The notes under the pieces were generated by a model. That model made no database searches and was not told where the DNA came from. It saw nothing but the letters and a program-made list of their open reading frames with translations. From a virus, in IMG/VR virus record IMGVR_UViG_3300025736_000014, positions 5,708 to 69,707 of that record: a stretch of 64,000 nt of DNA. One strand, written 5' to 3'. The first letter of the stretch is position 1, and each line of letters starts with the position of its first letter. The translations under genes and the position numbers were made by a program. Of the stretch, positions 35,744-45,300 are shown in pieces.

Positions 35744-35889
35744 TAGTCAATGGCGGAAGTTTACATAAGTTACGATAGGTTTGACAGCTCATGTCTGGTT
35801 CCGCCGAGCGACTATAAGCTCTTAATTATATGCTACGCCCCAACCTATTGGGGTGTTTAAAGTAGCACATCTATCTTACTTTATTTTAG

Positions 35890-36046: not shown

Positions 36047-36121
36047 TGAGTGCAGAGGGACTTGAACCCCCGACATTCTGCTTAAAAGGCAGACGCTCTT
36101 GACCAACTGAGCTATGCACCC
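36047..36121 (-). tRNA. tRNA-Lys(UUU)
   Basis: loop CTTTTAA. Confidence 0.92.
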
Positions 36122-36125
36122 GTTA

Positions 36126-36394
36126 TCAGAAAGTAATAAGCCAGATTCTGTTTTATGATGACATCTGTCTATGCCTTCGAACTTTAGACCTTGGTGGAAC
36201 ATCCTCAAACGGTCAATTCGGAAGTTGCTGCGACGGAGATTGCTCGTTTCACCATGCGACCTTCTAGTAGAAGGCGGCGTGCTCGTCTCTGTAGCTCTAA
36301 TCAGCGGTTTTACCCGTCTTAGGATTTAACCTAAGCAGTCTGTTCCATGCAGTCTGGACTTTCCTCTTTTTCAAGCGTCATCTCGCTTTCTGAT
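36126..36394 (-). ncRNA. rnpB: RNase P RNA, compact bacterial type (~269 nt)
   Basis: GAGGAAAGTCC, GGTGAAACG and AAACAGAATCTGGCTTA conserved blocks; P1 TCAGAAAG/CTTTCTGA. Confidence 0.9.
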
Positions 36395-37382: not shown

Positions 37383-37435
37383 AAACGGGGCACGTTCGGG
37401 ATTCTTCGGAGTTCCTCAGATTCCCCATGCCCGTG

Positions 37436-37509
37436 TGCTTCAAATAGGATTCGAACCTATACTGTGTCGGTTTTAAGCCGATTACCTCTACCAGTTGGGT
37501 TACTGAAGC
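37436..37509 (-). tRNA. tRNA-Leu(UAA), short variable loop
   Basis: loop CTTAAAA, 5-nt variable region. Confidence 0.85.
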
Positions 37510-37588
37510 ATAGTAGCCTGTCTCCCAGCTTGTAGGCTACAAACCTACGCGTGGTTTCAAGAGTAAAAACTCTTTCAGACTACTTGTG

Positions 37589-37670
37589 TGCCAAATATAG
37601 GATTCGAACCTACATACCTTACGGCACGAGTTTCTAAAACTCGCGTGTATACCTATTCCACCAATTTGGC
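37589..37670 (-). tRNA. tRNA-Leu(UAG)
   Basis: loop TTTAGAA, long variable arm. Confidence 0.9.
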
Positions 37671-37826: not shown

Positions 37827-37898
37827 TAGCGGAATCTGAGAATCGCACTCAGTTAAGACAGGTTATGAGCCTATCGAGATACTTACCTCCCACCCGCT
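37827..37898 (-). tRNA. tRNA-Met(CAU), probably initiator-like, atypical T-loop
   Basis: loop CTCATAA; purine11-pyrimidine24-type D stem; T-loop TGCGATT. Confidence 0.75.
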
Positions 37899-37918: not shown

Positions 37919-37927
37919 TTAAACGGG

Positions 37928-38012
37928 CGGAAGATGTAGGAGTTGAACCTACAAGACCTTGCGGTCGCTGTTTTCAAAACAGAGGCGGTGCCAATTACGC
38001 GTGTAATCTTCC
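37928..38012 (-). tRNA. tRNA-Ser(UGA)
   Basis: loop TTTGAAA, long variable arm. Confidence 0.9.
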
Positions 38013-38017
38013 ATGTG

Positions 38018-38101
38018 TGCTGATTCTAGGTAATGCTCCTAGGTTGGCGATTAGGCTACGGGTTTACAGTCCGCTCTCCCTCTTTAGAAGACTACATCAG
38101 C
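38018..38101 (-). tRNA. tRNA-Tyr(GUA), non-canonical T-loop
   Basis: loop CTGTAAA; T-arm CTAGG-AGCATTA-CCTAG. Confidence 0.7.
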
Positions 38102-38499: not shown

Positions 38500-38568
38500 T
38501 TGCGATAGTGGGAGTCGAACCTACTTGCAACTGATTATGATTCAGTGCCTCTACCCAAGATTATCGCA
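38500..38568 (-). tRNA. tRNA-Met(CAU), elongator-like, reduced D-arm (69 nt)
   Basis: stem ACTGA/TCAGT, loop ATCATAA. Confidence 0.65.
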
Positions 38569-39481: not shown

Positions 39482-39662
39482 ACAACAGCTTTCGCTTAAT
39501 ACTGGAGAGCTTAATGATCTATCCTGCTTGGAAGATCGAAGCGACTCCCCAGATTTAAGAGAACGCAGATTTTAGCAGTTTATTACTAAAACTTGTTTTT
39601 TATTGCTTCAGAAAGGGTTTACCTAAATAAGCGATATCTAGTCCACTCACTAGAGCAACTCT

Positions 39663-40964: not shown

Positions 40965-41912
40965 TCAAAATAACTTCTTAAAGTATTCTATGCCCTGAAG
41001 AATATCTTTGAATCCTAAAATCTCATGCTTATTGCTATTCATCAATAAAGCAATTCCTCCAATTTGTCCTGTCCTCTGAGCCTCTTTACTTAAAAATCTG
41101 TCTTGAAGTTTGTAACCTCCTGAAGCACAATATAGAACGTCACGCTTACCTTCCCAATCTTCTACCTCATCATGGTCAACTGCTCTTTCGTGGTGGTGGG
41201 CGGTTATGAAAGCATCAGCTCCGTGGAAGCGATCTCTTTCGAGGCGCCTAGCGGCGTGGCTAATTGAGTAAATAGACGAGCCTTTTCCTTTGTGACAACA
41301 GGCTATTTTATACATCTGATTTCCGACTACAATCTCTATTTTAGCTGGACCAATCATAAACGGGAAATCCCCAATCGCCCTCTGAATCCCCCGATACATT
41401 GATAACCCTGATCTTTTAAATCCCCACACTTCATCATGGTCGCCACCTAAAGTAAAAGCTAACTTGTCTTTGTTAAAATATTCCCTCATTACTTGTTTAG
41501 CCCATAGGTGTTGAAACTCAGGTTCGTGAGTTTGCTCATACATCCCTGAAGCAAACCAAGTATTGTCCACAATATCCCCTAATAAAGCAACTTTAGCGTT
41601 GGGAGTTTCCATGATCGCTTTACGATCCTTCTCGAACTTATTTACTTCCATTGACCTCGCCCCAAAGTGAGTGTCTGATTGGACACATAATAAAACAGGA
41701 CTGTCGCCATAGACAATCCTTGTGTAAAAAAAGTGAGGATCGAGAACATCCATGTCCACTTTTCTTTCGTCAGCCTTTTTTGCGAACCAAGCGGCATCTG
41801 GAGCAGGTACTGTAGCCATATCAAATAGAGGTTTTATCTCCTTACAATTTTTTATTGCTATTTCGTTTCTGCTCAAAAACGCACCATCTGGGTAGAACAA
41901 ACACTCTTTCAT
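40965..41912 (-). CDS. calcineurin-like metallophosphoesterase
   Basis: SDTHFG, GDIVD, GGDH, CH, AHHH motifs. Confidence 0.85.
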   Translation of the reverse strand: MKECLFYPDGAFLSRNEIAIKNCKEIKPLFDMATVPAPDAAWFAKKADERKVDMDVLDPHFFYTRIVYGDSPVLLCVQSDTHFGARSMEVNKFEKDRKAIMETPNAKVALLGDIVDNTWFASGMYEQTHEPEFQHLWAKQVMREYFNKDKLAFTLGGDHDEVWGFKRSGLSMYRGIQRAIGDFPFMIGPAKIEIVVGNQMYKIACCHKGKGSSIYSISHAARRLERDRFHGADAFITAHHHERAVDHDEVEDWEGKRDVLYCASGGYKLQDRFLSKEAQRTGQIGGIALLMNSNKHEILGFKDILQGIEYFKKLF

Positions 41913-42212
41913 ACCATTCCCTTATTTGTTTATTCAACACTTTATCCATGTTCATAGATGTTTCAGGTTTATGTTTCTCTGAGTTATTATAGCACGTTTT
42001 TCCCATAAAGATATGGCTAATTTAAGTTCTGTTCTTTTTGAAATTCTTCAGCTTTCTCTCGAGTAGAAAACCAAGTACGCTCGAATCCTTCCCTACCTCT
42101 CTCATTGATTGTCTTTATAGTAACAACCCACATATTTGCCTTCTTAACGTGCTTTATCATATCGTGTAGATGTAAAAAGGGTTGTCATGAATGAGTTTTT
42201 TCATGTAAGGAT

Positions 42213-42242
42213 ATTATACTATGTGGAAGTATAAAGTGTCAA
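42213..42242 (-). promoter_or_regulatory. consensus sigma70 promoter
   Basis: TTGACA-N18-TATAAT. Confidence 0.8.
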
Positions 42243-42340
42243 GTAATGCTTTTAACGTAGATGACTGATGAAACTAATCACTAGAATAGAGATAGCGATA
42301 AGAAAGGCAATAATAGAGAAAAGATGTTGATAGTCTTTGT

Positions 42341-42715
42341 TCATCTTTCAAATATCTCCTTACAAGTTACCCAGAGGGCATCTATTAATTCTTTCCTGAA
42401 TCTACTGTTATGATGTGTTGTATCTGTAACACTATATTTATTATTAGCCCACTTTGATATTCCTATAAACTTCCATCTCTCATCTAAAAACTCTATCATC
42501 TGACCTATGTTGAGGAGAGGGTTCTTTTCCATATACTCAACTTCAGCATATGTCTTTAGAGTTTTAGGATCTTCAAGAGCCTTTTTATCACCAAATAATT
42601 CTTTTATTAACTTATAATCTCTATCTAAATACTTCTTAATCCACAAGTCCTCGTACCTCTTTTTCCCCTTCTTAGATAACTCATCTCGTTGTTTAACTGT
42701 GATGTGTTGTTTCAT
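42341..42715 (-). CDS. hypothetical protein
   Basis: 124 aa ORF. Confidence 0.55.
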   Translation of the reverse strand: MKQHITVKQRDELSKKGKKRYEDLWIKKYLDRDYKLIKELFGDKKALEDPKTLKTYAEVEYMEKNPLLNIGQMIEFLDERWKFIGISKWANNKYSVTDTTHHNSRFRKELIDALWVTCKEIFER

Positions 42716-42780
42716 AGGTTAATCCTTCTGATAAATTAAGAATAATAAAACTATAATAATTAAACCCCCTAAGCTCATAT

Positions 42781-43047
42781 CTATCTCCTTATAAATCCAG
42801 GTTGATAAATTTCTAATTCATCTCTGATATTTTTTATCTTAAACCAATCACCAAGCAATATAATCTCTAAGCCTCTTTTAAGCCCTCTTAAGTGATGCTC
42901 ATGACTTACTAAAATAGTGTTTTCTTTATCTATATTATTTTCTCTCAAGTATTCCTTGTAAATTGGATGATGTGGTGTAATTATAATTTGTTCTTTCATA
43001 CTTTCCTTTCTGGGTTTCCCAATTTGTTTAGATATAGGTTGTTTCAT
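42781..43047 (-). CDS. hypothetical protein
   Basis: 88 aa ORF. Confidence 0.5.
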   Translation of the reverse strand: MKQPISKQIGKPRKESMKEQIIITPHHPIYKEYLRENNIDKENTILVSHEHHLRGLKRGLEIILLGDWFKIKNIRDELEIYQPGFIRR

Positions 43048-43346
43048 AAAAACTTCTGTAAATACTTAATAGGGTCTCTACCTTCTTGAATCTCATCTAA
43101 CATTTGGTGTTGGTAATATTCCCACCCTTCAAGTGGTTCTTCACCAAAAAAAGCCTTAGCAAAGTCAGGGGAGAAATAAAACCTTTCGCCTAATATACTC
43201 CCATCGTTTAACTTCCAACCCCCAGGACTATATAATTCCCAAGTTACAGAATAGTCATTTTTAATAAGTTCTAAATCCAAATCACCCCTCCACCCATTCT
43301 TTACTGCTTTGGCTATGGCTTTCTTTAAGATTGTTTCGTTTTTCAT
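43044..43346 (-). CDS. hypothetical phage protein
   Basis: 100 aa ORF. Confidence 0.55.
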   Translation of the reverse strand: MKNETILKKAIAKAVKNGWRGDLDLELIKNDYSVTWELYSPGGWKLNDGSILGERFYFSPDFAKAFFGEEPLEGWEYYQHQMLDEIQEGRDPIKYLQKFL

Positions 43347-43430
43347 ATAGACCTTTATATAATAATTGTTAATATTTAATGTTCTTGTTCATAATCACGC
43401 CATAATCGCGACATTAATCACGCCAATTAT

Positions 43431-43697
43431 TTAATGTTCTTGTTCATAGATTGCTTGTCTTAGATAAACTACTAAATCTAAAGCCTCTTCGTAGGCGTCC
43501 TGTAAAACGTTTCTACCATTATGGGGCTGTAATCTGACACCATATCTCTCCAGGCCGAATTTATCTCTCTTATTCATATCCAAAATAACTAGATCCCAGA
43601 CTGCGGGTAGTTTGTTTTTCTTTGGTCTAGGCTGTTTCTTATTCATATAGTAATTTAAACATTGGTTCTTTCCAAGCACGTTCTTCTTTGTATCCAC
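43431..43697 (-). CDS. all-alpha NTP pyrophosphatase-like phage protein
   Basis: G-x2-RYG..L..HNGR..DAYEEALDLVVYL. Confidence 0.5.
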   Translation of the reverse strand: MDTKKNVLGKNQCLNYYMNKKQPRPKKNKLPAVWDLVILDMNKRDKFGLERYGVRLQPHNGRNVLQDAYEEALDLVVYLRQAIYEQEH

Positions 43698-43947
43698 AAT
43701 GAGAGCAGGTGTAGTCGACTAGATATGACACTTCTATCCTAATTTTACTTGGAACTGGGCACGATGAATAAAGATTTTCATAAGTTATTGGCAATAGGTT
43801 CTCTATTTTTTTATCTATGCTCGGGGTGATGTGGGCAATAACATGAGATTTACAGCTACGGCATTGAAGGGTACAAATACCGCGTGTTCTTCTCTTAAGC
43901 CGATCTTCGGCACTAAGAGGATCGTAAGCTGAGGAAGTAATCGCCAT
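43639..43947 (-). CDS. Zn-ribbon hypothetical protein
   Basis: CRSC..CSHCG. Confidence 0.5.
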   Translation of the reverse strand: MAITSSAYDPLSAEDRLKRRTRGICTLQCRSCKSHVIAHITPSIDKKIENLLPITYENLYSSCPVPSKIRIEVSYLVDYTCSHCGYKEERAWKEPMFKLLYE

Positions 43948-43974
43948 ATATAGATTATATCATAAATAACTCAG

Positions 43975-44067
43975 TAGCTGGGGCAAGGACTTGAACCTTA
44001 CAAAGAGCCCGTAATATCAGGAATCGGGCAACACCTGAACATTCTGCGATTCGTTCGCCTCCCAGCT
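43975..44067 (-). ncRNA. tRNA-like RNA with a pseudoknot replacing the anticodon arm
   Basis: acceptor AGCTGGG/CCCAGCT, D-like GCGA/TCGC, T-arm with TTCAAGT loop; TCAGG/CCTGA and GCCCG/CGGGC interleaved. Confidence 0.6.
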
Positions 44068-44099
44068 ATTCAGTTATCAAAGAGTAGCTTATTATAGCA

Positions 44100-45300
44100 T
44101 ATGTGTCGACAGATTTCTATCGCCATTTACCTTTCTATTTTTTTTAATTACCGTCTTTTGTAGTAAAGACTATAGGGTATTTGTCATTGATTTTAGGGCA
44201 GGCCTAACGGAAGTAGCTAGTTTACGATTAGTAGACATAGTCTCCTGGATTGCTCCATTGCTTCCAGAGTAGAAAACCCCGTTCCCATTATATATAGCAT
44301 TACATTAGGGAAAGTGTCGACAGATGGGTATATGAAGTACAGTTTAAGCAATAACGATGTACGGTACCCACTATAGGCTATCCACAATAGATTTTCTGAC
44401 TAGGGGGCCTATAGTGTTCCACATGAGAGAAGAAAACGCATAACTACTCTGTTAAAATTCCGTTTGATATAATCTTTTCTATACTATGAGTTGTCCTATA
44501 GTAGAGTGATGATACTACTAATCAAGAGATAGTCCTATAACAATACACTAGAAGATATACGCTATATAATTCCATTCATCTATCTACTAACTACTAACAC
44601 TGTAGTATTTACTATGGGGAAATCATCTATGTAGTACTAGAATCCTATAACATAAACTATACAGTCTAGTTCTAACTATAACTATTACTATAAGTTATGT
44701 CCTGTAGTATCACACTATAGTCTTAGATCCATAGAGAAATGACTTATAGTGTTGACTATACTGCCTGTTAAGTGCGTTTATAATAAACACTATTGGATAA
44801 CTTATAATGTAGTACTATATCATCATCTTTTGTCCTATAGTAATGTGATCATCTGTATAGTCCTATAGTATGATGTAAGATGATATAAGATACACTATAG
44901 TAACTACTATCGGACACGAAACTGTTACTTCTAAGACACGCTGTTTTTCATATCGCATAAATCATCATCAATAATAATAAAATGCGTTAGAATTGAACAG
45001 GACAAGTCTTTTAATATCTTTAATCTGTTATCTAAGTATATATAGTCGAAATAGTAAAAATTCCAACAGACCTCGAAACTGATACTATAGGATTCTGATG
45101 ACTTTCTTCTCTGTTATATTGCTACTTGACAATTTTGTATAATAGTTTATCGTTAAGTTACTGATGATATTAGTATAAGTAATTTTTCATCGTCTCAGAT
45201 ACAGAAAAGAGATCACACTTTAACAAACAGATCAGACAACAACAGACTTGATACATCTGATGATCTTAAAATCTGATAGTCTTATCTAAGTAGTCAAGAG
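44100..45300. other. divergent non-coding switch region with iterated (G)TCCTATAGTA-like motifs
   Basis: no ORF in track; GTCCTATAGTA at 44493, 44832, 44860 (and 46392); variants at 44532, 44642, 44699. Confidence 0.6.

Follow-up and report, generated by a model that had tools for sequence, protein, structure and literature searches.

For decades phages have been known to encode RNAs that resemble tRNAs and lack a usable anticodon, such as T4 RNAC and RNAD (the species 1 and 2 RNAs) and T5 RNA1 (T5s03, annotated as 'tRNA-like stable RNA with unknown functions'), and no function has been assigned to them. They are encoded in tRNA clusters, are 119-144 nt long and carry long hairpin inserts, and in T5 RNA1 a Leu-like D arm and a T arm flank an oversized middle. 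The TLD-only tmRNA of mycobacteriophage DS6A is likewise a small, non-decoding phage RNA, in which the upper half of the tRNA shape is retained (PMC4131195). In the PKI domain of the dicistrovirus IGR IRES a pseudoknot reproduces the anticodon:codon helix (PMC8002689); this domain comes from a eukaryotic virus, where it forms one component of a triple-pseudoknot IRES that initiates an ORF, and has neither an acceptor nor a T arm. The element described here, known from sequence alone, appears to join the phage non-decoding tRNA mimics. It shares with T5 RNA1 and T4 RNAC/D the phage origin and the tRNA-like frame without usable anticodon, but with about 93 nt it is smaller, it lies by itself in an early slot, and it contains a putative compact codon-anticodon pseudoknot. 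Kinship was not detected: the T5 RNA1 region scored 10.5 bits, below ordinary tRNAs, and T4 RNAC and RNAD gave no match. From the DS6A tmRNA it differs in lacking the alanine identity pair, in having a D stem and in the lack of an Rfam tmRNA match. What would be new is the lock of an anticodon to its own codon, a design of which no description was found in the literature.

The window analyzed here is a stretch of 64,000 nucleotides from a linear virus record of 76,726 bases (76.7 kb; 36% GC; completeness about 74%). The phage is uncultured and its DNA occurs in salt-lake metagenome DNA runs. Bacterial matches to the phage RmlA that bear names are mostly from Patescibacteria, which makes this the probable host phylum. 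Between 35.5 and 39.5 kb of the window there are 26 tRNAs called by ARAGORN, a tmRNA, and an RNase P RNA at 36121-36394. The element is located 4.5 kb upstream of this cluster, adjoining a strand switch and at the head of a leftward region of small ORFs, and searches with the proteins of its neighbors returned almost no relatives. In the cluster itself ARAGORN missed four genes on the minus strand, i.e., tRNA-Tyr(GTA) at 38018-38101, tRNA-Ser(TGA) at 37926-38012, and tRNA-Met(CAT) at 37827-37898 and 38500-38568, of which three have non-standard T or D loops or low scores; with these four included, the phage tRNA set spans all 20 amino acids. A hairpin at 39495-39575 (minus strand; z -4.0) lies just upstream of the boxA that heads the cluster, has no Rfam match and recurs in a related phage (L295:2435-2510) with the outer stem kept and the inside altered. 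Three spacers in the cluster (37508-37590, 37383-37432, and 35745-35885, minus strand) also fold well (z -3.4 to -3.8) and are without Rfam match.

Every motif listed in an earlier, sequence-only reading of this locus was found again in place on the minus strand (Table 1). The T arm described there is present, although its stem has 6 bp rather than 5. This stem holds one G.U pair, whereas the acceptor stem (8 bp including the outermost pair) and the D stem (4 bp) are free of mismatches. Predicted pair probabilities in the acceptor, D, and T stems are 0.84-1.0, with 0.67 for the outermost acceptor pair, and the folding z of a 120-nt stretch is -2.3. The acceptor can be read in two registers, either with A1-U72 and A73 as discriminator (7+6 = 13 bp to the T loop) or with G1-C72 and U73 (6+6 = 12 bp). 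A predicted leader-trailer helix would stack outside the acceptor stem with a small internal loop between them. As in many tRNA genes of the same phage, CCA is not encoded. Position 8 is A rather than U8 and the D loop has one G and lacks G18G19, so that the elbow may be imperfect.

Table 1. Positions in the window of the tRNA-shaped element, its parts and flanking signals, and of the phage tmRNA.
Feature	Position	Strand	Remarks
Palindromic TGTCGACA box before promoter	44104-44111	.	Outside swapped cassette
Extended -10 box, left fixed cassette border	44091-44099	-	
Whole exchangeable cassette	43965-44090	-	Comparison with sister strains L188, L189, L287
Leader-trailer helix, 6 bp	44077-44072 with 43971-43966	-	Prediction only
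boxA-like tRNA-operon leader	44067-44084	-	Motif comparison within genome
tRNA-shaped body	43975-44068	-	Acceptor 44068-44061 with 43982-43975
Acceptor stem, 7 bp	44067-44061 with 43982-43976	-	One further pair, 44068:43975
D hairpin, 4 bp, 5-nt loop	44058-44055 with 44049-44046 (span 44046-44058)	-	
Former anticodon loop, positions 32-38 (UUCAGGU)	44033-44039	-	U33, CAG 44037-44035, G37
Pseudoknot stem 1, 5 bp	44038-44034 (U33-G37) with 44021-44017	-	Leu codon CUG at 44020-44018
Pseudoknot stem 2, 5 bp	44029-44025 with 44011-44007	-	Putative class II variable-arm stem, 13-nt loop
T arm, 6-bp stem and 7-nt loop	43983-44001, loop 43995-43989	-	
Second extended -10 box, right fixed cassette border	43954-43962	-	6 nt before ATG 43947
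Full phage tmRNA	36777-37095		

A descriptor made of the T arm, a 7-bp Watson-Crick acceptor and the D hairpin matches only the element and real tRNAs in the genome and has no match in 200 shuffled genomes. The element occurs at 100% identity in two other assemblies (L281 and L282) and is thus not an assembly artefact, and the reads of four DNA runs, at low depth, showed no variant within it. In three sister-strain contigs (L188, L189, and L287) the match to the window runs to the -10 box at 44091 and resumes at 43964, and a 74-codon zinc-ribbon ORF (CxxC...CxxC) stands where the RNA would be; the distance between the two -10 boxes is 137 nt with the RNA vs. 228 nt with the ORF. As the swap is between shared -10 boxes, the RNA fills a gene slot with borders at 44090 and 43965. 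Small zinc-ribbon ORFs, and no RNA, are also found behind the same type of promoter in a relative that is further removed (71% identity in the 46042 ORF), which suggests that the RNA is probably the later arrival in the slot. Small CxxC...CxxC ORFs (L188:123-347; L289:17-817 and 1430-1700) occupy the slots behind extended -10 promoters with a GTCGAC box in this group of phages. In the L188 sister ORF the ATG is only 2 nt past the -10 box, and the true start or promoter may differ. Compared with L188 the leftward early region 41900-43960 is a mosaic in which near-identical blocks are interspersed with swapped gene halves and whole ORFs.

The palindromic TGTCGACA box upstream of the promoter recurs at 44315, before the promoter of the tRNA cluster (39675) and before the equivalent promoters of the relative L289, and it may be an operator or activator site. 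Transcription would start near 44085, directly followed by a leader motif which presumably resembles rRNA boxA. This motif has three matches in the genome, each before a tRNA or the element, the other two directly preceding tRNA-His at the head of the cluster (39479) and a tRNA-Met (at about 37917). In other loci the search pattern, which was derived from these same three sites, had three matches, each with a T-loop motif 59 nt further on. Within this genome the boxA-like leader was found only before tRNA-His, tRNA-Met, and the element, so that the cassette resembles the opening unit of a tRNA operon. No terminator was found after the element, and the mRNA of the next ORF, which begins close behind the second -10 box, is probably leaderless. 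The swap of the cassette, the tRNA-type leader, the lack of any overlapping ORF of at least 20 aa and the lack of an Rfam match together bear out the original proposal of a stand-alone gene for a tRNA-shaped non-coding RNA. The element is very probably a real RNA gene, and it appears to be a sharply bounded orphan.

The element does not fall into a described class. ARAGORN made no call, and the Rfam comparison suggested earlier (tRNA, tRNA-Sec, YrlA, and tmRNA) gave no match to any known family even at E-values up to 10. A canonical tRNA (RF00005) has to be rejected: the acceptor, D, and T arms are present, but the anticodon stem, the Rfam and ARAGORN scores, U8, and G18G19 all fail. With tRNA-Sec the only shared trait is the 13-bp total of one of the two registers, while the in-register triplet is CAG and not UCA, the D stem has 4 bp, the stem of the arm does not close and there is no Rfam match. 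In the bacterial Y RNA YrlA the T arm precedes the D arm and a Ro60-binding stem is present; the order in the element is D and then T, and YrlA gave no Rfam match. A coding function was rejected (no ORF of at least 20 aa). Similarly, an attP site was not supported, as no tyrosine integrase was found in the record (about 74% complete) and no long exact match of the 3' end was found in 401 genomes.

Two interleaved 5-bp Watson-Crick stems had been proposed to replace the anticodon arm. Both are present and without mismatch. It had been overlooked that the putative pseudoknot is formed from the anticodon loop of a Leu(CAG) tRNA and the codon which that anticodon reads. With 5+5 bp and loops of 4, 3, and 5 nt the H-type geometry is feasible. 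When the middle (44 nt) was dinucleotide-shuffled 40,000 times, a compact 5+5 H-type arrangement arose in 43 cases and is therefore improbable by chance. H-type patterns are common throughout this AT-rich genome (80 and 73 overlapping matches on the two strands). Alternatively, stem 1 may be extended by pairing 44043-44040 with 44016-44013 into a long simple hairpin, which competes at equal predicted energy (-31.4 vs. -31.5 kcal/mol) and, judged from the geometry, excludes the pseudoknot because a single linker base remains. The folding program draws no pseudoknots, and in its predicted ensemble stem 2 alone has a probability of 0.39 and stem 1 one of 0.58, the latter often extended into the long hairpin. 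The odds are judged to lean slightly toward formation of the pseudoknot. The statement that no valid anticodon loop can be drawn holds for the stem, where 27-31 fails to pair with 39-43 (two of five pairs are kept), but not for the loop, the sequence of which is that of a canonical Leu(CAG) loop in register. With only two of the five pairs of the ancestral anticodon stem left, the RNA could not decode even if it was unlocked.

The register follows normal tRNA numbering from the D stem onward, with one base at 26 and five at 27-31, and in this register the U33, NAG, and G37 of a Leu anticodon loop are found. On the Leu(CAG) reading, stem 1 would join the CAG anticodon to the CUG codon that it reads, which lies in an enlarged variable loop, and stem 2 would be the stem of a class II variable arm with a loop enlarged to 13 bases. 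Positions 32-41 are identical to E. coli leuV (L288:180-266) in 10 of 10 bases; an equally good in-register match to any of 470 tRNA 10-mers arises in 28 of 20,000 shuffles, leuV having been added after the match was noticed. Twenty Leu(CAG) genes of Patescibacteria (L318-L337), retrieved with a search pattern in which the anticodon was fixed, match the element across the D-stem blocks, loop, and T-arm core. One of them (L319) begins with the same six bases and is identical to it throughout the 7-nt loop, and the T loop of the element is the one seen most often in Patescibacteria tRNA-Leu(CAG). In the D stem a purine-purine pair of the Leu consensus is replaced by A-U. A Patescibacteria Leu(CAG) profile ranks first among 33 tRNA profiles (10.8 bits, the next at 8.8), with 33 of 500 shuffles of the middle scoring as well, i.e., the real middle adds only modestly. 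An unanchored best-hit test of Leu ancestry was not significant (score 20 vs. a shuffle mean of 19.9). With a single-sequence model the top scorers were two Patescibacteria tRNA-Met genes (L300:1501-1577 and L299:5-80), which have an extra T-stem/acceptor pair and the 13-bp register as in the element; a 6-bp T stem with a 13-bp register is present in only 7 of 576 tRNAs checked. Ancestry from tRNA-Met is nevertheless not preferred, as the Met profile scores 7.7 against 10.8 and the loop and variable region are Leu-like. E. coli Leu(CAG) is also rejected as donor, since the whole arm was not beyond chance in 301 Patescibacteria genomes, and the match to it serves as an illustration.

On these grounds, which are of moderate strength, tRNA-Leu(CAG) is the likely ancestor. 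With bacterial class II tRNA-Leu(CAG) (RF00005) the element shares the start of the acceptor, the D-stem blocks, loop 32-38, a long stemmed variable region, and the T loop, whereas the anticodon stem is broken, the anticodon can be paired to an internal CUG, the short D loop lacks G18G19, the T stem has 6 bp and the score is below any Rfam tRNA threshold. E. coli LeuRS requires A73, G18G19, A20a, and D-T contacts including tertiary pairs, and not the anticodon (PMC9976931). In the element A73 is present in the 13-bp register only, and leucine charging is unlikely because the 5-nt D loop is without GG; the RNA is thus probably not leucylated.

Diverged homologs, from which covariation could be read, were sought in several ways, by exact patterns or in samples, so that the searches do not demonstrate absence. 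None was found by blastn of phages, in a metagenome scan, in the tRNA cluster of a related phage (L295-L297), or in a GTDB scan, which gave one chance match. Exact and degenerate patterns for the 3' end, the frame, the D hairpin, stem 2 with the T arm, and the core of the pseudoknot were run against IMG/VR and returned ordinary tRNAs, chance matches, and other families. In Patescibacteria neither the element as DNA (401 genomes) nor a covariance model (150 genomes) detected a diverged homolog, and the same was the case when a covariance model was run on 58 loci, where the best matches had been fetched by element-derived patterns and hence were not independent.

How may such an RNA have arisen and what may it do? 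A class II tRNA gene, most likely tRNA-Leu(CAG), would have been acquired along with its boxA leader and turned into a non-decoding mimic, which fills the first slot behind the early leftward promoter. Transcription would begin early, from about 44085, the transcript would fold into an L-like, tRNA-like body and RNase P, either that of the host or that encoded by the phage, would probably trim it at 44067 or 44066. Burial of the anticodon in an intramolecular codon-anticodon helix would prevent decoding and leave no free loop for anticodon nucleases. The RNA could then serve as a stable decoy that binds a host tRNA-recognising factor and is itself not consumed, and the most plausible target would be a tRNA-cleaving nuclease or a tRNA-sensing defence protein. 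A non-decoding decoy for a host tRNA-binding defence factor is the reading we prefer, with a probability of roughly 0.4, because the RNA is predicted to be uncharged, non-decoding, early, and with a buried anticodon, and because small accessory ORFs can take its place. Defences that cleave tRNAs are known to be countered by phage tRNAs, although in the cases examined this was by resupply and not as decoys (PMC11555353). A version in which the Leu(CAG) body locked on its own codon would mimic tRNA and mRNA at once, and either occupy ribosomes or disarm tRNA-sensing or tRNA-cleaving immunity of Patescibacteria, is rather improbable.

Other explanations have to be weighed against the decoy. The boxA-like motif at the predicted start of the transcript, the lack of a terminator after the element, the leader-trailer helix, and the RNase P RNA encoded by the phage are all consistent with a cis-acting leader, in which the antitermination complex of the host would be loaded at boxA to serve the early leftward operon, with the fold as no more than an RNase P processing or stabilising site. 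However, the next ORF has its own extended -10 box, sister strains without leader and fold retain the same downstream ORF, and a processing site would have no need of an anticodon-codon helix; we consider such a role unlikely. It is also conceivable that the element is the relic of a tRNA-Leu gene, caught in a recombination-prone slot and scrambled by a short inverted duplication of the anticodon arm, with the pseudoknot as a by-product. The insert and the anticodon arm are nearly complementary, which is what one would expect after a template switch, the region is a mosaic of interchangeable modules and the element is an orphan without diverged homolog in the searches made. On the other hand, the acceptor, the D and T arms, stem 1, and stem 2 are free of mismatches in a sequence unlike any tRNA found, the D stem has exchanged the purine-purine pair of the Leu consensus for A-U, and promoter and leader are intact, and we would not expect this of a relic, which is given the same low standing as the cis-acting leader.

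The composition of stem 1, an anticodon with its cognate codon, could mean that a locked PKI-like helix fills the decoding site without mRNA and stalls, parks, or redirects host ribosomes. This is quite improbable, as the anticodon stem needed for tRNA geometry is broken, no in-frame ORF follows the codon and domains like PKII or PKIII that would recruit the ribosome are missing. The same CUG segment is complementary to the Leu(CAG) loop consensus of the host phylum, and Leu(CAG) is missing from the phage's own tRNA cluster; the segment could pair in trans with the anticodon loop of host tRNA-Leu(CAG) and remove this tRNA while the phage uses its own Leu(UAG). Here the intramolecular partner should win, and the avoidance of CUG is no stronger than that of other G-ending codons, its share of 0.08 being like that in most four-codon boxes, which makes such an anti-tRNA very unlikely. 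The suggestion of a mini tmRNA-like molecule made in the sequence-only reading did not hold up. A TLD-only tmRNA titrating SmpB has been proposed for DS6A (PMC4131195; PMC11915505), and the tmRNA pseudoknot lies 3' of the tRNA-like 5' part, but the element has no G3.U70 in either register (C3-G70 or U3-A70), its D stem is paired over 4 bp, no Rfam tmRNA match was obtained at E-values up to 10 and the phage already has a full, intact tmRNA of different sequence (Table 1), and there is hardly any room left for this alternative.

Whichever explanation applies, the element offers a minimal test object, as it is small, a natural swap with a protein gene defines where it begins and ends, its ancestry is readable, and the sister strains provide a natural pair with and without the RNA. 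Should it bind ribosomes or a defence nuclease, it would be a counterpart in a bacterial phage of the PKI trick of the IRES and an RNA-based counter-defence. Should it be a relic, it would still show how such mimics may originate from a tRNA.

An uncatalogued family of tRNA-shaped RNAs was noted in probable cyanophages (L131:6415-6507, L123:792-888, L109, L186, L187, L193, L200, L203, and L204). Its members have a variable acceptor, a hairpin stacked on the acceptor, an invariant linker, a long middle hairpin with an internal loop, and a T arm, always precede the same small ORF in the loci read, and were without Rfam match in the four loci tested. The tRNA frame, a non-canonical middle, the stem-2 pentamers, and part of the T-arm linker are common to this family and the element, but the middle of the family is one long hairpin without a pseudoknot, and membership was rejected as the covariance model of the family (R1) scores the element at 10.5 bits (E 0.19), a value that ordinary T arms reach as well. 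Oversized tRNA-like elements that ARAGORN and Rfam miss were also seen in other phage loci (L052:635-737, L022:4443-4547, L011:392-496, L021:1512-1615, L076:4446-4551, and L072:1951-2053), their structures being read by eye. Among these, the anticodon stem of L022 may enclose a small pseudoknot, and L052 has a Cys-type loop in register and a complementary segment downstream.
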